Virus record (IMG/VR): IMGVR_UViG_3300045988_027468
Reading direction: 5' to 3' (one strand)
Source: a virus
Length of the DNA: 12,430 nucleotides
The notes under the pieces are model-generated. The model ran no database searches. It was given only the letters and a program-made list of their open reading frames with translations, and had not been told where the DNA came from. Of this stretch, positions 1 through 12,430 are shown piece by piece. The position numbers were made by a program, and so were the translations under genes. The stretch's first letter is position 1, and every line of letters starts with the position of its first letter.

Positions 1-55
1 TTAACACTGTTAAAAATCACTAATTTTGTTAACTTTTCGTCTGTTTTTATTAACT
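1..55 (+). repeat. Terminal 55-bp unit, copy 1 of a direct repeat (copy 2 at 174-228; mirrored at 12376-12430 and 12203-12257)
   Basis: ttaacactgttaaaaatcactaattttgttaacttttcgtctgtttttattaact is identical at 1-55 and 174-228. It begins with the interrupted palindrome TTAACAcTGTTAA (1-13). Confidence 0.95.
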
Positions 56-173
56 AGGTACACAAGGCACCCTATTTTAACATTCCAACACATATTTAAC
101 AGTTGCTAACACTTTGGCACGCTTTTTGCTGTGTGCCGCAATTACGATTATTTAACACATTTAACATTGTTAA

Positions 174-228
174 TTAACACTGTTAAAAATCACTAATTTT
201 GTTAACTTTTCGTCTGTTTTTATTAACT
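174..228 (+). repeat. Internal copy of the terminal 55-bp unit, 173 bp inside the genome end
   Basis: Exact 55/55 match to 1-55. It is preceded by a third TTAACAtTGTTAA palindrome (161-173), which creates GTTAATTAAC at the junction (169-178). Confidence 0.95.
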
Positions 229-245
229 TTTGCCTGTCTATTATT

Positions 246-287
246 GTTTCACGTGGAACAACCTGTTAGTAATGTTTCACGTGAAAC
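246..287. promoter_or_regulatory. Pair of CACGTG-core palindromic sites at the inner ITR edge: GTTTCACGTGgAAC (246-259) and perfect GTTTCACGTGAAAC (274-287)
   Basis: The 14-bp perfect palindrome is read directly. The same 14-mer recurs at 5134-5147 and 12144-12157. Putative operator or protein-binding site; function is inferred only. Confidence 0.5.
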
Positions 288-339: not shown

Positions 340-371
340 TTTGGTGGTTTCGCAAAAATGCAGTATCTTTG
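340..371 (+). promoter_or_regulatory. Left inward promoter, Bacteroides-type (-33 TTTG at 340-343, 20-nt spacer, -7 TAtcTTTG at 364-371)
   Basis: Matches the Bacteroides primary-sigma consensus TTTG / TAnnTTTG with 19-21 nt spacing. The 40-mer 338-377 is 34/40 identical to the reverse complement of 12054-12093. Confidence 0.6.
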
Positions 372-1088: not shown

Positions 1089-1760
1089 ATGGCTAAACAG
1101 AATCCTATAGGGTTTACAAACAAAACGTTTGCACTTACTAGCAAAGTGCAATTAGATAAGCAAATATTAACTGCTGTAGAATCACGTGGGTATTTGCGTA
1201 AAGAGATTGCACGTGTATTTCAACAGGCAAACAGACGCATTCAGAACGTAGAAAAATCGGGTATAGTTTCGCCAGCTGTTGTTGCACTTAACAAAGGTAA
1301 TATAACAGGTTTCACAAAATTCTCTATGCGTCACAGTTGGGAAGATTTAAAGATTGAGTACGCCAAAGCGGTTTCTTTTTTACGTCAGCCAACATCTACT
1401 GCAACAGGTACGAAAGAATACGCAGAATACTTGAAAAAAGCCTATGATTTGGACGATAAAAGTTTTGCCCTTATGCAAAATAAGTTAATGGGTAAAATTG
1501 CAAGTGTTTCAGATGAGCGTTTTTTGGAACAGTACTTAATGCAATATAAAGATTTTACAGGTGAACTAGAACAGGAATCCAAAGACGTTTCAGACCAAAT
1601 CGAAGATGATGCAGTAAAAATTGAAAATGCCTTAGATGATGCCTTAGAGCAAATAGGCAATGACCCAAACGCAGAAGCATTTATTAATGACGTGGATTCC
1701 TATAATACAGATGAACCGTTAAAGCGTATATTAGACGAATTTAAAAAATTTGGTTTATAA
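1089..1760 (+). CDS. Putative terminal protein (TP) for protein-primed replication (223 aa)
   Basis: Immediately upstream of, and coupled by a TAATG overlap to, the protein-primed DNA polymerase gene, as in phi29 gene 3/gene 2. It has a basic N-terminal region (IARVFQQANRRIQNVEKSG) and a very acidic C-terminal third containing ..DVDSYNTDE.., which resembles the phi29 TP priming-loop context FDSEGN as recalled from memory. Confidence 0.6.
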   Translation: MAKQNPIGFTNKTFALTSKVQLDKQILTAVESRGYLRKEIARVFQQANRRIQNVEKSGIVSPAVVALNKGNITGFTKFSMRHSWEDLKIEYAKAVSFLRQPTSTATGTKEYAEYLKKAYDLDDKSFALMQNKLMGKIASVSDERFLEQYLMQYKDFTGELEQESKDVSDQIEDDAVKIENALDDALEQIGNDPNAEAFINDVDSYNTDEPLKRILDEFKKFGL

Positions 1761-3970
1761 TGAAGAAAATTCCCTTTGCACTACATACCGAAACGTTCAC
1801 GCCGAAAGATATTACAAAAGTTTTGTCTTTGGCTGTGAACGATAAGAATTTTACAGGAAACAATAAGGGTGAAAAGTTCTTAAACGTTCCTGTATCTTTC
1901 GATATAGAAACCACATCTTTTTACCGTGATGTGGACGGAGAAACTTACACCTATGACCGTTATATAAAATTGGGCGGTAAACAAACAAAGATGGAAAAAT
2001 GTTCTTTAATGTACGTTTGGCAATTTGGAATTAACGGTTATTGCATAATAGGTAGAACGTGGGACGAATTTATAACTATGCTGAATGAGATTTCAGACGT
2101 TTTAAACCTGTCTGAAAAGAAACGTATTATTATATACGTTCACAATTTAGCCTATGAGTTCCAATTTTTCAGAGAGTTATTGCAGTGGACAAAGGTTTTT
2201 TCAATAGACCTTAGAAAACCTATTTACGGAATAACTGAAAACGGTATAGAATTTAGATGTAGTTATCTGTTATCGGGTTATTCACTTGCAAAGTTAGGTG
2301 AACAATTACACAAATATAAATGTGAAAAGTTGGTCGGTGATTTAGATTACAGCCTGTTACGTCACAACAAAACACCGTTGACACAAAAAGAAATGGGTTA
2401 TTGTTTGAACGATATTAAAGTAGTTATGTGTTATATACAGGAACTAATCGAACAATATAAAAACATTACCCATTTACCGATAACGAAGACAGGTTTTGTG
2501 CGTAAATATTGCCGTTCTGTGTGTTTTAAGACAACAGACCCCGAAACAGGTAAAACCGTACAAAATTTTAAGTATTTGGATAAAATCCATAACTTAAATA
2601 TAACAGGTATGGAAGAATTTGAAATGCTACAAAGAGCCTTTTCGGGCGGTTTCACGCACGCAAACGCAAAGTACACAGATGAAGTTATAGAAAACGTAGA
2701 TAGTTACGATTTTACAAGTAGTTACCCCTATGTGATGGTAAGCGAAAAATTTCCTATGAGTACAGGCGTTTTCGTTCCTGTTAAGTCTATGAAACAATTT
2801 GAGTTTATGACCTCAAAATATTGCTGTGTCTTTGACGTGGAATTTACGAATATCTTTGCAAAATCAGATAACGAAAATCCAATATCGGTTAGTAAGTGTT
2901 TCGTAAAGGAAAACGTATCAGAAAATAACGGTCGTTTGGTTTGTGCTAGTAAGATATGTATGACAATTACCGAAATAGATTACAGGGTGTTTTCGCAGTT
3001 CTATATGTGGGAATCTGTGAGAATCGGCAAAATGATTTGTTACCGCAAAGAATATTTGCCAACAGAGTTTATTAAATCCATTTTGCACCTGTATGAAATG
3101 AAAACGAAACTAAAAGGGGTTAAGGGCAAAGAAGTTGAGTATTTGAATAGCAAAGAAATGCTGAATAGCTGTTACGGTATGAGTGTGACAAACCCTTTGC
3201 GTGATGAAATCGTCTGTGATGGTGAAATGTGGGACGTTGAGCATTTAACAGGTGAAAAACGCTTAGAAGTACTTAACAAATACAATGATAGCAAAAACCG
3301 TTTTCTTTTCTATCCGTGGGGAATATATGTAACAGCCTATGCACGTAGGAATCTTTTTACAGGTATTCTAGAATGCGGTGACGATTACATCTACAGTGAT
3401 ACAGACAGCGTTAAAATCAAGAACGGCGAAGACCACAAAGAGTATTTCAAAGCCTATAACGATTTGGCACAGCAAAAATTACGTGCAGCCTGTAAGTTTC
3501 ATAAAATACCGTTTGAAAAGGTTGAGCCTGTCACGATTAAGGGAATCGCAAAACCTTTGGGCGTTTGGGATTATGAGGGACGTTACACACGTTTTAAAAC
3601 TTTGGGTGCAAAACGTTATATGGTGCAGGAAAAAGGAGCGTTGACGGTAAACGGTAAAGATTACGATTACAGTTTGACGGTATCGGGTGTTAACAAGAAA
3701 TCTGCTATACCCTATATGTTAGAAACATTTGGGGAAAACGGAATCTTTGACGCTTTTACTAATTACTTAGATATTCCACCGTCTGCAACAGGTAAGAATA
3801 TACACACCTATGTAGATTATGAACAGAGTGGAACTATCACCGATTATTTGGGTACGGTTTCTACTTATGACACAAAAACAGGTGTTCATTTAGAGCCTAC
3901 AGGGTACACTTTGAGCCTGTCAGTACTTTATATAAATTATTTAATGGGAATCAGATTAAAGAAAGAATAA
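1760..3970 (+). CDS. Family B DNA polymerase, protein-primed type (736 aa)
   Basis: Motifs read from the translation: ExoI FDIETTS (D48/E50); ExoII HNLAYEFQF; ExoIII YCLNDIKVV; motif A DSYDFTSSYPYVM; motif B KEMLNSCYGMS; motif C YSDTDSV (nt 3392-3412); KxY LGAKRYMV. Confidence 0.97.
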   Translation: MKKIPFALHTETFTPKDITKVLSLAVNDKNFTGNNKGEKFLNVPVSFDIETTSFYRDVDGETYTYDRYIKLGGKQTKMEKCSLMYVWQFGINGYCIIGRTWDEFITMLNEISDVLNLSEKKRIIIYVHNLAYEFQFFRELLQWTKVFSIDLRKPIYGITENGIEFRCSYLLSGYSLAKLGEQLHKYKCEKLVGDLDYSLLRHNKTPLTQKEMGYCLNDIKVVMCYIQELIEQYKNITHLPITKTGFVRKYCRSVCFKTTDPETGKTVQNFKYLDKIHNLNITGMEEFEMLQRAFSGGFTHANAKYTDEVIENVDSYDFTSSYPYVMVSEKFPMSTGVFVPVKSMKQFEFMTSKYCCVFDVEFTNIFAKSDNENPISVSKCFVKENVSENNGRLVCASKICMTITEIDYRVFSQFYMWESVRIGKMICYRKEYLPTEFIKSILHLYEMKTKLKGVKGKEVEYLNSKEMLNSCYGMSVTNPLRDEIVCDGEMWDVEHLTGEKRLEVLNKYNDSKNRFLFYPWGIYVTAYARRNLFTGILECGDDYIYSDTDSVKIKNGEDHKEYFKAYNDLAQQKLRAACKFHKIPFEKVEPVTIKGIAKPLGVWDYEGRYTRFKTLGAKRYMVQEKGALTVNGKDYDYSLTVSGVNKKSAIPYMLETFGENGIFDAFTNYLDIPPSATGKNIHTYVDYEQSGTITDYLGTVSTYDTKTGVHLEPTGYTLSLSVLYINYLMGIRLKKE

Positions 3971-5120: not shown

Positions 5121-5162
5121 CAGGGTAAAAATTGTTTCACGTGAAACATTTTCCCTGTTTTA
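5121..5162 (+). terminator. Large imperfect hairpin (cagggtaaaaattgtttcac / gtgaaacattttccctg) followed by a T tract; terminator of the replication/packaging module
   Basis: The stem arms are read directly. The hairpin core is the 14-bp palindrome GTTTCACGTGAAAC (5134-5147). The T-rich run ttttatttgg follows. Confidence 0.6.
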
Positions 5163-5194
5163 TTTGGTCGTTTCAGATATTTTGTTTATCTTTG
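5163..5194 (+). promoter_or_regulatory. Middle promoter, Bacteroides-type (-33 TTTG 5163-5166, 20-nt spacer, -7 TAtcTTTG 5187-5194), driving the morphogenesis module
   Basis: Same architecture as the terminal promoters and the same flanks (ATTTGGTnGTTTC ... TATCTTTGCA). Confidence 0.6.
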
Positions 5195-5226: not shown

Positions 5227-5421
5227 ATGGATATAAACGCAATAGTATCGCTAGTTAGTAACGTGGGGTTTCCTGTTGCTGTCTGTATTGGTCTTTTCTT
5301 TTATATGGAGAAACAGAACGAACGCCACCAACAGGAAACCGATAAGTTAAACGAAACCGTACAGAGTAACACGAAAGTGTTAACAGAACTTTGTACATTA
5401 ATTAAAACACTTGTGAAGTAA
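5227..5421 (+). CDS. Small single-pass membrane protein (64 aa), candidate holin or YvrJ-like protein
   Basis: ATG at 5227 is preferred over the TTG at 5164, which would make the promoter coding. It has one hydrophobic helix (IVSLVSNVGFPVAVCIGLFFYM) followed by a charged, coiled-coil-like tail. Its stop overlaps the portal ATG (TAATG). Confidence 0.6.
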   Translation: MDINAIVSLVSNVGFPVAVCIGLFFYMEKQNERHQQETDKLNETVQSNTKVLTELCTLIKTLVK

Positions 5422-6575
5422 TGAAAAAAGAGAATCTTTATAACTTGTATCAAACACAGGTCAAAGACAAAGATACAGCTTTGGACACGTTCTTTCAGCG
5501 AGTTCTTTGTATGACCTCAAAGATGTTTGTGTACACAGGTTTGCCCGATTCGATTCCACAGATAGAACTTGAAAAGATTCTGCAAACTAGTGGAAATGTA
5601 GGAATCGCAAAAGTTAACGGTGAACTATATGCACTACAGGGAAACAGGGGTGGCAAATGTGATGCCTATTACAGGGGAAAAGATTTTATTGTCGCAAATC
5701 CGTGGCTAGAATTGAATAAAACGTACAATATCGGAAAAGATATTGTTGTTATCAATAACACACCGTTTGCAGATTCGATTCTCCCTGTTATCGGGAAATA
5801 TGGTGTACTTTACACAGACGCAGTTATTACTTTAAATATGACTAGCGTTTTAACTAGAATCACTATGTTAATATCTGCTAGTGATGATAAAACGAAACAG
5901 AGCGCAGAATCTTTCCTCAAAAAGATTCTGGACGGTGATTTCTCGGTAATTGGTGAAAATGCGTTTTTCAAAGGTGTTAATATGCAAACACCACCAACAC
6001 AGAGCAACCAGCAGATAACGCAGTTAATAGAACTTTTGCAGTACTATAAAGCGTCAATGTTTAACGATTTGGGGTTGAACGCAAACTATAATATGAAACG
6101 TGAACGTTTGAACACGCAAGAGGTTTCTATGAATATAGATGCGTTAATGCCTTATGTTGACGCAATGTTAACAGAACGTGTTGAGGGTGTTAAGCGAGTT
6201 AACGAAATGTTCGGTACAGACATTACCGTAACTTTGGGTTCTAGTTGGAAAATTGAACACGAAAATTATTTATCGTTACTCAAATCCACAGAAGAGGGGC
6301 ACGAACACACCGAAACAGAAGATGTTGACCCTGTAACCGAAAACGAAAATGAGGAAACAGATGAAACAGAAGAAACGCAAGAAACAGAAGAAACGGAAAC
6401 AGAAACAGAAGAAACAGAAGAAACAGAAGAAACGGAAACGGAAACAGAAGAAACAGAAGAAACAGAAGAAACGGAAACGGAAACAGAAGAAACAGAAGAA
6501 ACAGAAGAAACGGAAACGGAAACAGAAGAAACAGAAGAAACAGAAGAGGAAAAGGAAAACAAAGATGAAGATTAA
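5421..6575 (+). CDS. Portal (head-tail connector) protein, phi29 gp10-like, with a roughly 90-aa acidic Glu/Thr low-complexity C-terminal extension (384 aa)
   Basis: Block resemblance to recalled phi29 gp10 (LP..I....LEK.L...G.VG; vvINNtpFa; N...K+ER+.T.EVS.N; N+.+G..+.V). The C-terminus is ...ETEETEETEETETE... repeated. Confidence 0.8.
   Translation: MKKENLYNLYQTQVKDKDTALDTFFQRVLCMTSKMFVYTGLPDSIPQIELEKILQTSGNVGIAKVNGELYALQGNRGGKCDAYYRGKDFIVANPWLELNKTYNIGKDIVVINNTPFADSILPVIGKYGVLYTDAVITLNMTSVLTRITMLISASDDKTKQSAESFLKKILDGDFSVIGENAFFKGVNMQTPPTQSNQQITQLIELLQYYKASMFNDLGLNANYNMKRERLNTQEVSMNIDALMPYVDAMLTERVEGVKRVNEMFGTDITVTLGSSWKIEHENYLSLLKSTEEGHEHTETEDVDPVTENENEETDETEETQETEETETETEETEETEETETETEETEETEETETETEETEETEETETETEETEETEEEKENKDED
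6390..6545 (+). repeat. Tandem repeat, 39-bp unit x4 (gaaacggaaacggaaacagaagaaacagaagaaacagaa), inside the portal 3' end
   Basis: Units start at 6390 (1 mismatch), 6429, 6468 and 6507 (three identical). Each is in frame and encodes ETETETEETEETE. They sit within a broader GAA/ACN-rich tract, about 6316-6560. Confidence 0.9.
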
Positions 6576-8413: not shown

Positions 8414-8857
8414 ATGATTAAAATTAAAACGTTTAACTATGACGGTAAACCAAACGAAGTAAACAAAACCCTACAGGAAAACAGCGAGTACACAGGGTTG
8501 TTAAATGCTAGTTTTAATGTGCTAACACCTGTAGTAAGATTCAGAATTCGCACACCTGTAACGTTTAATTATGTTTATATCGAAAGTTTAAACCGTTATT
8601 ATTTCGTGAAAGAAATTTCACAAGATGGTGACTTATGCACGGTACGTTTAAAAGTGGACGTTCTTTTCACGTACAAAGATAAAATACTCGCTAGTAGTGG
8701 AACGTTGACACAGGGTGAAAACGTTAACAAATATCTTTCAAACCGTGCAAACGTGGTTGATGTACGACCAAACGTAAGAAAGTTAGATTTTCCGAATAAG
8801 GAACTATTGAACGAAACAGGTAGTATTATTATGGTAACTATAAAAGGTAATAAGTAA
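8414..8857 (+). CDS. Hypothetical tail protein (147 aa); resembles the N-terminal block of phi29 gp9 tail-knob/tube proteins
   Basis: NYVYIESLNRYYFVKEISQDGDLCTVRLKVDVLFTY compared with recalled gp9 [41 protein letters not shown]. The stop overlaps the next ATG (TAATG). Confidence 0.65.
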   Translation: MIKIKTFNYDGKPNEVNKTLQENSEYTGLLNASFNVLTPVVRFRIRTPVTFNYVYIESLNRYYFVKEISQDGDLCTVRLKVDVLFTYKDKILASSGTLTQGENVNKYLSNRANVVDVRPNVRKLDFPNKELLNETGSIIMVTIKGNK

Positions 8858-10728
8858 TGGCAAGTTATAAAATTAATTATCACTTAACAAACTGTACTAC
8901 TACAGCCGCAAGTAGTGAAAATTACGACACAGACGGTAATGTTATAAAGTTTTGCGGAAAAGCTGTTGACGGTTGTTATTTTTTACCAAATGACGGTGAC
9001 TATAATTATATTTCACGTCTGAGTGGTGGAACAACAAAAGTTACACATTTTAATCTGTCACGTGTTTCTGCTAGTGACAACTCAAAAGTTATTAGCGGTG
9101 ATATTGACGGTATTTCATCAGATGGCAAGTATTTTTCAAAACGTTTGACGTTTGGAACAGCCAACAGCGGTGAAATGGAATGTTACTTAAACGCACGTGG
9201 TGGAACACCTACAGTTAAAACGTTAAAGATACACAATAACGTTTCGGGAACAAATGCCGTTTCGGTGCAAAACGATACAAATTTCGATATTACGTTGACA
9301 GGTGACACAGACGGTACTTTTACGGTTGTTCCTGTAGTTACTTACAAGAACACGTATAACGAAACCGCACAGGGAACAATGAACGTTAAAGGTAACGTAG
9401 CTACATTTAGTGTTCCTGTAGAAACAAACGAAGAGGTAACAATAAACGGAACGTTCACACCGAAACCGAAAGAGTTAACAATAACAAACCACGTTTCGGG
9501 AACTACTGCAACCTATGTGCAAAACGGTGAAAATTTCGATATTACGTTGACAGGTAACACAGATGGTAGTTTTTCTGTTGTTCCTGTAGTTTCGTATAAA
9601 AACGAAAGTGGAACGGAAACCACAGATGAAATGAACGTTAACGGTAAAACAGCTACATTTAGTGTACCTGTTGCGACAAACGACACAGTAACCATTACAG
9701 GAACGTTTAAACCCGAAAAGCCACAGAAAAACGTTCCTATTACTTATGCGTTGACAAATTGTACCGTTTCACCACAGCCACAGACAGTTAAAACAGGGGA
9801 AACTTTAAACTTGACTGTCACACCTGTTATCAATTACAAACTAGATTCGTGCAATCTTATTTGGAATGACGGAACGAAAGATATTACGATAAGTGTTACA
9901 GGTGGTGTTATTTCGTTCCCTGTGCCCGATTCTTGCGTTTCTGTGACGATTAAAGCTGTAGCTAGTATAATAACGCCTGTTGGTAGAAATTATGGTGCTA
10001 TAAACGTTTATTGCGTGACGCTTGACAATTTGGACGCATTTTCTAAACAGCGTTTCTTTGAAATAAAAGATGATACACAGGGAATCTATGAAGAGGTTAA
10101 TTTAGGAATCTATGTAAATCGTATCAAACGCATTTTCACAAACGTTCCTGTATCGGGGTCGGATTCTTTGCGGTGTGGTAACTACAACACAGGTATAACG
10201 GTACAAACACCCGAAAAAGACATTATAATGCTAGACTTTGGCAATGTGACGTTAACAGGTTTGAACGGTGATTCGGAAGACTATAACGCACAAATTTCGG
10301 TGTTCATTCCGTGCCGTGGCTTTGTCGCTATAGATAGTAAGTATATCGGTAAAACGGTAAACCTATCTTTCAAAGTGAACGTTATTACAGGTGATGCGGT
10401 AGCGTTTTTGTCCTGTGATGGCGTTATCTTTCAGTTAGAAAGTTTTTCTTTGTCACGTGATGTTATTTACAAGACAGGAACAACAGAACTTAATATCGTA
10501 GGCGGTACGCAATGGGACGAACAAATTTTGTATGGTTTAGAACCTTATGTTATTATCACGCAGAACACTACAATAAACAAGCCTGTGAACAATACACAGG
10601 AAACCGTAACAATAGGGGACGTGACAGGCTACGCACAGTTTGAAAACGTAGATTTGAACACGGTTAATTTGTTGGTCGATGAGTATAACACCATTATTTC
10701 AGAACTTGAAAACGGTGTTTATCTATAA
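8857..10728 (+). CDS. Multi-domain tail protein (623 aa): probable receptor-binding/tail-knob protein with tandem beta-sandwich-like repeats
   Basis: Two adjacent ~84-aa repeats (aa 121-204 and 205-289). Two further modules both open with an LTNCT motif (aa 10-14 and 299-303). The C-terminal end GYAQFENVDLN..EYNTIISELENGVYL resembles the recalled gp9 C-terminus NYVQTKD..DLQEIRTIFDNGITLW. Confidence 0.8.
   Translation: MASYKINYHLTNCTTTAASSENYDTDGNVIKFCGKAVDGCYFLPNDGDYNYISRLSGGTTKVTHFNLSRVSASDNSKVISGDIDGISSDGKYFSKRLTFGTANSGEMECYLNARGGTPTVKTLKIHNNVSGTNAVSVQNDTNFDITLTGDTDGTFTVVPVVTYKNTYNETAQGTMNVKGNVATFSVPVETNEEVTINGTFTPKPKELTITNHVSGTTATYVQNGENFDITLTGNTDGSFSVVPVVSYKNESGTETTDEMNVNGKTATFSVPVATNDTVTITGTFKPEKPQKNVPITYALTNCTVSPQPQTVKTGETLNLTVTPVINYKLDSCNLIWNDGTKDITISVTGGVISFPVPDSCVSVTIKAVASIITPVGRNYGAINVYCVTLDNLDAFSKQRFFEIKDDTQGIYEEVNLGIYVNRIKRIFTNVPVSGSDSLRCGNYNTGITVQTPEKDIIMLDFGNVTLTGLNGDSEDYNAQISVFIPCRGFVAIDSKYIGKTVNLSFKVNVITGDAVAFLSCDGVIFQLESFSLSRDVIYKTGTTELNIVGGTQWDEQILYGLEPYVIITQNTTINKPVNNTQETVTIGDVTGYAQFENVDLNTVNLLVDEYNTIISELENGVYL
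9217..9723 (+). repeat. Intragenic tandem duplication (~252 bp x2: 9217-9468 and 9469-9723) encoding two related ~84-aa domains
   Basis: KTLKIHNNVSGTNAVSVQNDTNFDITLTGDTDGTFTVVPVVTYKN...ATFSVPVETNEEVTINGTFTPKP versus KELTITNHVSGTTATYVQNGENFDITLTGNTDGSFSVVPVVSYKN...ATFSVPVATNDTVTITGTFKPEKP. Confidence 0.9.
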
Positions 10729-11688: not shown

Positions 11689-12015
11689 TTAACCGATTCT
11701 TTCGCTAGTCTGAATAAGCTGCAAGAATGTACTTGCGTCTTTGCCCAATTTGTTGCACAGCTGAGTAACACAACAACCATATTCTGAAATGTAGTTCAAA
11801 CTATCTTTTGATTCAAAGATAGTATATACATCTTTTGTTAATTTTGGTAAGGTGTTATGCTTGATACAGTTAATTTCGTGCTCATACATTACCTTTGCTA
11901 CATCTGCAAAAACACCCTCTACTATTTGAGTGTTACGTGAAATTTCACTTTTTACACATGTACCGTTAGCAGATATAACGGTTTCAAATTCTAGTGTAAT
12001 TTTATACTTTGCCAT
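11689..12015 (-). CDS. Hypothetical protein (108 aa), first gene of the leftward right-end module
   Basis: The ATG lies about 45 nt downstream of the right promoter -7 box. No motif recognised. Confidence 0.65.
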   Translation of the reverse strand: MAKYKITLEFETVISANGTCVKSEISRNTQIVEGVFADVAKVMYEHEINCIKHNTLPKLTKDVYTIFESKDSLNYISEYGCCVTQLCNKLGKDASTFLQLIQTSERIG

Positions 12016-12059
12016 AATCTTATTATTTAACTGTTTGACTTATTTTTTAATTTCTGCTG

Positions 12060-12091: not shown

Positions 12092-12143
12092 TTATTTTTG
12101 TTAATAGTTCTTAAATTAAAAATTTTAATCTTTTTAACAAAAC

Positions 12144-12185
12144 GTTTCACGTGAAACATTACTAACAGGTTGTTCCACGTGAAAC
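12144..12185. promoter_or_regulatory. Mirror pair of CACGTG-core palindromes in ITR-R: GTTTCACGTGAAAC (12144-12157) and GTTcCACGTGAAAC (12172-12185)
   Basis: Read directly. They sit 53 nt upstream of the right promoter -33 element, the same distance as on the left. Confidence 0.5.
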
Positions 12186-12430
12186 AATAATAGACAGGCA
12201 AAAGTTAATAAAAACAGACGAAAAGTTAACAAAATTAGTGATTTTTAACAGTGTTAATTAACAATGTTAAATGTGTTAAATAATCGTAATTGCGGCACAC
12301 AGCAAAAAGCGTGCCAAAGTGTTAGCAACTGTTAAATATGTGTTGGAATGTTAAAATAGGGTGCCTTGTGTACCTAGTTAATAAAAACAGACGAAAAGTT
12401 AACAAAATTAGTGATTTTTAACAGTGTTAA
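12144..12430. repeat. Right inverted terminal repeat (ITR-R), 287 bp
   Basis: Perfect reverse complement of 1-287. The window ends exactly at the repeat end, as expected for a complete linear replicon. Confidence 0.95.

Follow-up and report, generated by a model that had tools for sequence, protein, structure and literature searches.

Does a small phage with a linear genome carry a second, internal copy of its replication origin at each end, or do the letters that suggest this lie beyond the real end of the DNA? The question is raised by the termini of the window, as we call the whole stretch of 12,430 nt analysed here. For 287 nt its left end is the exact reverse complement of its right end, and up to 377 nt the complementarity is 93%. 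Inside this repeat, bases 1-55 recur with 100% identity at 174-228, and 12203-12257 is identical to 12376-12430 at the right end. The preliminary description of this DNA had started from the same recurrence, mirrored at the right end; we recomputed the identity, and it is exact. It had taken the 55 bp for a terminal origin accompanied by an internal copy. We arrive at another answer: the duplicated 55 bp are very probably a by-product of assembly, formed by a loop in a k=55 graph and placed beyond the real end.

Part of the earlier reading concerned palindromes. The interrupted 13-nt palindrome TTAACACTGTTAA (also given as TTAACAcTGTTAA) is present at 1-13 and 174-186, and its 13-nt variant TTAACATTGTTAA (also given as TTAACAtTGTTAA) at 161-173, as had been reported. 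The junction GTTAATTAAC, which had been interpreted as two fused termini, is the boundary of two adjacent 13-nt palindromic sites. Together, the units at 161-186 form a palindrome centred on 173/174 with arms of 18 nt. A head-to-head fusion of termini was considered and rejected: the reverse-complement match extends only ~14 nt on each side of 173/174, and 1-173 is not the reverse complement of 174-346. The 13-nt sites also occur singly in relatives of this phage, and the palindrome TTAACAcTGTTAA, where relatives have it (28 of 42), is an internal element at a distance of ~120 nt from the end.

The window belongs to a phi29-like podovirus of ~12.3 kb whose genome was assembled from a metagenome. 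From left to right, two small ORFs and a 223-aa ORF are followed by a protein-primed-type family B DNA polymerase (polB), a gp16-type packaging ATPase, a holin-like protein, a phi29-type connector, a phi29-type major capsid protein and a large tail gene; an M15 peptidase endolysin and small ORFs occupy the minus strand at the right end. PolB matched PF03175 at 1.5e-15, phrog_1907 at 5e-71 and the phi29 DNA polymerase 1XHX at 5.6e-7. A phi29-type morphogenesis module was recognised by its capsid protein (PF25622, 5e-55), connector (PF05352, 1e-13) and gp16 ATPase (PF05894, 2e-23). With this gene set, the earlier claim of a genuine inverted terminal repeat on a phage of the protein-primed type holds good. 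Both marks of a phi29-like linear genome were found, inverted repeats at its termini and a reiteration of 2 nt or more at the very end; in the relatives the reiteration is AAA, of which a single A survives at the window junction. Directly upstream of polB, the 223-aa ORF shows homology to its syntenic counterpart in Salmonella phage Astrid and matched no terminal-protein family in Pfam and PHROGs scans; by its position it is a candidate for the terminal protein.

A megablast search of GenBank phages with the whole window gave no match and thus no near-identical phage. The closest cultured relatives by polB are phages of the 11-12-kb Astrithrvirus group (45-47% identity), which have the gene order in common with the window. 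The polymerase, the phi29 gene set and this Astrithrvirus-like order point to a small phi29-like podovirus with inverted terminal repeats. Phi29-like phages of such size have been described from faecal metagenomes, some of them attributed to Bacteroidales (PMC11476376). No credible prohead RNA (pRNA) or other Rfam family was detected in the window up to E=1, which is a weak negative since pRNAs diverge fast; if the phage uses a pRNA, it must be too divergent for RF00044.

Some further features of this phage group were seen on the way. The connector protein (ORF 5421-6575) has a C-terminal acidic Glu/Thr-rich tail, encoded at 6306-6575 by a long imperfect DNA repeat with a 9-nt period (GAAACAGAA...). 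The 623-aa tail gene (8857-10728) has an internal 252-nt tandem duplication at 9205-9713 with 77-79% identity between copies, which points to a domain present twice, perhaps with a role in receptor binding. Two contigs of the same phage with 98% polB identity, L083 (QHMG01000022.1) and L084 (CAAFVD010000052.1), are binned in two independent Melainabacteria/Gastranaerophilales MAGs, in contrast to the Bacteroidota-type look of the promoters.

The real ends could be located with the help of relatives. We collected 86 contigs, 80 from IMG/VR (protein-guided scan, 89-99% polB identity) and 6 from ENA metagenomes (motif scan); the end region is reached by 53 of them (47 from IMG/VR and all 6 others). 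In every end-reaching contig the conserved sequence stops at AAAGGTACACAA(G/A)GCAC, and in none of the 53 was conserved phage sequence found beyond AAAGGTACAC/AAAGGTACACAAGGCAC. Most of them start 0-6 nt from the terminal motif, with 0-6 terminal A's. AAAGG is joined straight to an Illumina TruSeq adapter in L010, L012, L022, L034 and L036; L034 and L036 retain the complete index primer (CGAGAT-index-GTGACTGGAGTTC...GATCT), and L032, L056 and L062 are near-identical cases. Since the adapter is attached at one fixed base in independent libraries, this base is a physical DNA end. For the nearest relatives, L004 and L001 (~96%), BLAST homology begins exactly at window base 56, opposite their third or fourth A. 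From base 56 onwards the window reads AGGTACACAAGGCAC, like the terminus of the relatives, but of their AAA run it keeps just the final A.

We place bases 1-55 outside the genome because the relatives end at AAAGGTACAC, because adapters abut there and because homology starts at 56. The true DNA ends most likely lie at ~54-56 and ~12375-12377 and read 5'-AAAGGTACACAAGGCAC, the left end starting AAAGGTACAC. A genome start at base 1, as previously assumed, does not agree with relatives that end, adapters attached, at the motif corresponding to window 54-56. The preliminary description had itself allowed for an artefact reaching from 1 to 173, with a true end at 174. The artefact was rightly suspected; its extent was not, as it covers 1-55 and the true end is at ~54-56. 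The ends of phage Astrid were tried as a guide and gave no help, its terminus being a different one and a TTAACA array being absent. Untrimmed Illumina TruSeq/Nextera adapter and index sequence was seen in the public contigs L065 (1-34), L010, L012, L022, L032, L034, L036, L056, L062 and L075; such retained adapters are a handy end marker, yet they contaminate the database records.

Table 1. Features of the window ends and of the replication genes
Feature	Coordinates	Strand	Basis
Probable extra-genomic lead: repeats 174-228 exactly and abuts the true terminus	1..55	+	Exact repeat; homology of relatives from base 56
Mirror of the lead at the right end	12376..12430	-	Repeat comparison; terminal repeat collapsed in assembly graphs
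True left inverted terminal repeat, exact part	56..287	+	Base 56 is the third A of AAAGG; imperfect to ~377
True right inverted terminal repeat, exact part	12144..12375	-	Repeat comparison
Conserved terminus-proximal core, candidate replication origin	56..145	+	Most conserved block in 42 aligned relatives
Sigma-54-like box TGGCACG-N4-TTGCT (TGGCACGCTTTTTGCT)	115-130; 12301-12316	+; -	Perfect -24/-12 consensus (TGGCACG-N4-TTGCW), directed inward
Variable TTAACA array with TTAACAnTGTTAA palindromes and source copy of the 55-mer (174-228)	152..228	+	Least conserved part of the repeat
Operator-like palindrome TGTTTCACGTG(G/A)AAC(A) (also TGTTTCACGTGRAACA, TGTTTCACGTGAAACA)	245-260, 273-287	+	Repeat search; invariant in relatives
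Left early promoter: TTTG (340-343), 20-nt spacer, TAtcTTTG (364-371)	340..371	+	Read from the sequence
Candidate terminal protein, 223 aa	1089..1760	+	Position; last base is the first base of the polB start codon
Protein-primed-type family B DNA polymerase (polB)	1760..3970	+	PF03175, phrog_1907, 1XHX

Once the lead is removed, the two terminal repeats match exactly for 232 nt (Table 1). An alignment of 42 relatives, from the terminus to the first start codon, showed that conservation is unevenly distributed along it: 56-145 is almost invariant, and conservation within the repeat is lowest over 161-232, from which the 55-mer is copied. The core of ~90 nt comprises (AA)AGGTACACAAGGCAC, two invariant TTTAACA sites (76-82 and 95-101) and CTAACAC-TTTGGCACGCTTTTTGC. 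The segment 174-228 is unlikely to be an origin because it belongs to the least conserved part of the terminal repeat. What had been described as a terminal origin with an internal copy is hence a poorly conserved internal segment, ~120 nt from the true end, of which a k-length copy stands in front of the contig.

Within the most conserved part of the repeat lies a sigma-54-like box, whose TGGCAC element is present in 42/42 relatives and whose TTGC element in 34/42. About 0.3 such matches (at most one mismatch) are expected in the window by chance. From its sequence, the box could be an RpoN promoter or a protein-binding site of the origin. Further inward, the operator-like palindrome has an additional copy ahead of the middle promoter (5133-5150) and mirror-image copies at 12139-12158 and 12171-12188. 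Since it is invariant and stands in one to three copies upstream of each of the three promoters (340-371, 5163-5194 and 12091-12060), it suggests that one regulator may act on all three transcription units. The early promoter pattern itself is repeated at 5163-5194, mirrored at 12091-12060 and kept in the relatives; going by the consensus, we take it to be of Bacteroidota type. A sigma-70 consensus scan of 1-700 found no more sites than in shuffled sequences.

The length of the duplicated segment corresponds to the largest default k of SPAdes and metaSPAdes, 55. Several related contigs bear the same signature. In L015 a 55-nt lead, an exact copy of its own 11965-12019, is followed by the terminus; L050 and L007 carry foreign leads of 55 and 54 nt before the terminus; L027 and L070 end exactly 55 nt into the inverted repeat. 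Other contigs stop at 79, 99, 119 or 141 nt, which is the k series of MEGAHIT. Contig names in another collection (k141_, k119_, NODE_) indicate that both MEGAHIT and SPAdes have been applied to this phage. An exact look-up of the first-gene product returned nine contigs, all MEGAHIT assemblies that fall short of the terminus by ending k into the repeat; as a test of the junction they were uninformative and only served to identify assemblers. Overall, junk leads joined to the terminus were present in ~6 of 47 IMG/VR contigs.

A simple graph mechanism would account for the lead. Reads joining base 228 to the terminus would create the junction ...TTATTAACT/AGGTACAC, in place of the natural continuation TTATTAACT/TTTGCC. 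The 55-mer 174-228 would thereby turn into a branching vertex that can be left towards 229 or towards 56. The tip at 56, which would otherwise dead-end, would gain an entry, and a loop of 173 nt (56-228) would close. The outward path through the collapsed terminal repeat would re-enter the vertex and stop there, adding one extra k-mer, that is 55 nt, at both ends. The identity of the two ends is therefore not independent evidence for the duplication, as inverted repeats collapse in an assembly graph. The joining reads themselves would most likely be chimeric: the joint is blunt, and two of the three terminal A's are absent, which fits a chimeric fragment with a free DNA end. Template switching at this junction was considered, but the microhomology sought there was not found.

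In this last respect the window differs from L016 (1-21), L066 (1-19) and the right end of L096. In these contigs the terminus is preceded by the complement of the -7 box region of the right-end promoter, and the joins lie at an AAAG(G/A)TAC microhomology with the terminus (GCTACAAAGGTAC / GCTGCAAAGATAC); the leads of L066 and L096 are identical. Such joins suggest that snap-back or template-switch molecules form repeatedly at the genome end, either in vivo or during library preparation.

The lead of the window resembles the k-mer-length end duplications known from loop or cycle closure in SPAdes and MEGAHIT. There, too, an exact copy of standard k length stands at the contig end, the last k-mer shared before a branch is the one copied, and sister contigs show likewise k-length ends. 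It differs from the usual case in that the genome is linear, the cycle is a 173-nt one beside the end, and both ends are affected. Unlike in the usual case, the loop would also need a read that joins 228 to the terminus. One observation speaks against an artefact: the 55-mer starts exactly at the palindrome centre 173/174, which by chance would happen roughly once in 100 cases. The agreement of 55 with the k of the assembler could in principle be a coincidence as well.

The contig would look identical if 56-228 were truly duplicated in tandem, as a 173-bp unit, at each end (AAAGG-S-T-AGG-S-T-genome) in at least two copies that the assembler collapsed. Such an arrangement, in part or all of the phage population, would still leave the terminus at AAAGGTACAC, and the internal copy would be one of the terminus and not of the 55-mer. 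It can draw on tandem duplications that exist in the repeats of relatives (a 32-nt unit three times in L014, a 67-nt unit twice in L046) and on the proneness of phi29-type polymerases to template switching. We nevertheless regard it as unlikely. None of the 53 end-reaching relatives has this duplication; neither an own-prefix repeat like that of the window nor the 228/56 junction was present in any of the 86 related contigs, and a search for TTAACT/AGGTACAC in IMG/VR and in metagenome contigs gave no match in either collection. One boundary coincides with the physical end trimmed by 2 nt, and the joint has no microhomology, which looks like the joining of a free end and not like slippage. The duplications verified in relatives, by comparison, are short ones located between TTAACA repeats. 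Junk leads are also common in these assemblies. As a biological route to the 228/56 junction, a protein-primed polymerase might run off the end and re-engage ~173 nt inside the repeat, a prospect that we find distinctly unlikely. If it did occur, the result would be a tandem duplication bounded by the former physical terminus and with it a natural route for growth of the terminal repeat and for the rapid turnover of the TTAACA array among relatives; it would also provide an internal spare of the true AAAGG origin.

Still less can be said for a genome that begins at base 1 with TTAACACTGTTAA, with a 55-bp origin, a functional or relic internal copy and TP-dTMP formed on a 3'-AA template. The contig as given does start there and both of its ends agree, and a 5'-TT reiteration formally permits sliding-back. 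Against this, relatives whose replication genes are 96-99% identical end at AAAGGTACAC with adapters attached, and the lead in the window is followed by the same AGGTACACAAGGCAC. The 55-mer sits in the most variable part of the repeat, the arrangement was seen in no relative, and its length is a standard assembler k. We give this model, which the comparison with relatives already speaks against for the most part, hardly any credence. The headline feature is best explained as an artefact, or at best as an unresolved repeat, with a length of 55 nt set by the assembler.

The enrichment of TTAAC, on the other hand, withstood scrutiny. The ten plus-strand starts listed earlier (1, 29, 50, 77, 96, 152, 161, 174, 202 and 223) were confirmed, and five more sites lie on the minus strand. 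The resulting 15 sites in 1-287 compare with 2.8 +/- 1.7 in dinucleotide shuffles, 0 of 2000 of which reached 15. Without the lead, 10 sites remain in 56-228 where 1.5 +/- 1.3 are expected (0 of 2000 shuffles). The excess thus goes beyond chance as had been claimed; the expectation of well under one site was too low, the plus strand alone having an expectation of ~1.9 for 1-287. The density is 43 per kb in 56-287 versus 6.8 per kb in the window interior, and the corresponding stretch contains 3-15 sites, or 22-60 per kb, in each of 42/42 relatives. Comparison with relatives, proposed earlier as a check, revealed a conserved TTAAC enrichment, whereas the source of the 55-mer is the least conserved part. 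The core of the extended motif is (T)TTAACA.

Whether this is an iteron-like array has to be answered with a distinction. Enrichment and conservation in relatives agree with that description. The plus-strand spacings of 19, 56, 9, 13, 28 and 21 nt are irregular, unlike the regular spacing of iterons, and a cognate binding protein was not found: when the small early ORFs were scanned with Pfam and PHROGs, no DNA-binding domain came up, and the matches were noise below threshold (HTH_5 at E=0.15, for example). The likely ligand of the TTAACA array is a small protein of the phage, or possibly one of the host. Indels and short tandem duplications alter the variable stretch, and the array appears to evolve by duplication between TTAACA repeats. 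In L014 (~150-250), three read-through tandem copies of the 32-nt unit TTAATTAACACTGTTAAAAATGACTAATTTTG lie within the terminal repeat, and in L046 (1-134) the two tandem copies of the 67-nt unit, also within the terminal repeat, hold the sigma-54-like box.

The corrected terminus also changes the view of replication initiation. In phi29 and GA-1, initiation takes place opposite the second T of a 3'-TTT template end, in Nf and Cp-1 opposite the third, in each case with TP-dAMP and sliding-back (PMC4974454; PMC3480470). The true 5'-AAA end of the window phage fits TP-dAMP priming of the phi29/Cp-1 type with sliding-back. From this terminus we infer dAMP on a 3'-TTT template as the initiating nucleotide, as in phi29, Nf, GA-1 and Cp-1 (PMC4974454), in place of the TP-dTMP formerly deduced from a 5'-TT terminus. 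By analogy, a heterodimer of terminal protein and polB would start with dAMP opposite the second or third T of 3'-TTT and slide back, and TP-dAMP would be expected on the template end 3'-TTTCCATGTG. A TTAACA-binding protein would serve to organise the end or to link the activity of the origin with early transcription, analogous to phi29 p6/p4.

The window shares with the origins of phi29, Nf, GA-1 and Cp-1 a 5'-AAAG... terminus, which gives a 3'-TTT template, and a PF03175 polB; the placing of a candidate terminal-protein gene immediately before polB and the module of capsid, connector and gp16 are likewise in common. A terminal repeat of a few hundred bp is found in Cp-1 as well, where it measures 236 bp, whereas that of phi29 has 6 bp, compared with about 232-320 bp in the window. 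The window phage further departs from the phi29 group by the lack of a detected pRNA and by its presumably Bacteroidota-type promoters, and no similarity of its candidate terminal protein to known families of such proteins was detected. The Astrithrvirus set (the phages Astrid, astrithr and assan of Salmonella, Acinetobacter phage Phanie and Pectobacterium phage DU_PP_III) resembles it in gene order, genome length of 11-12 kb and annotated inverted terminal repeats, and differs from it in host and promoter type. In Astrid the repeat has 83 bp and starts ATTTTTATGATG, and neither the terminus nor the TTAACA array is common to the two. Protein-binding DNA between a minimal terminal origin and the early promoters, within the terminal repeat or adjoining it, is also known from the phi29 p6 complex and from the adenovirus NFI/Oct-1 sites. 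Phi29 p6 has a 24-bp periodicity, whereas the spacing of TTAACA, an enriched and conserved short motif and a putative binding site in the window, is irregular (9-56 nt).

The main value of these results is one of caution. An apparent internally duplicated terminal origin would have suggested a new architecture and a TP-dTMP mode of initiation. In linear phages that have inverted terminal repeats, adapter, foreign or self-derived leads often extend the contigs past the terminus, and such leads corrupt repeat annotation as well as inferences that start from the ends. The TTAAC array and the protein-primed character are real but ordinary for such replicons. With the end corrected to AAAGGTACAC, this gut phage group looks like an orthodox replicon of the phi29/Cp-1 type. 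The 90-nt candidate origin core, the fast-evolving TTAACA array and the putative operators before three promoters are useful for the study of these uncultured phages.
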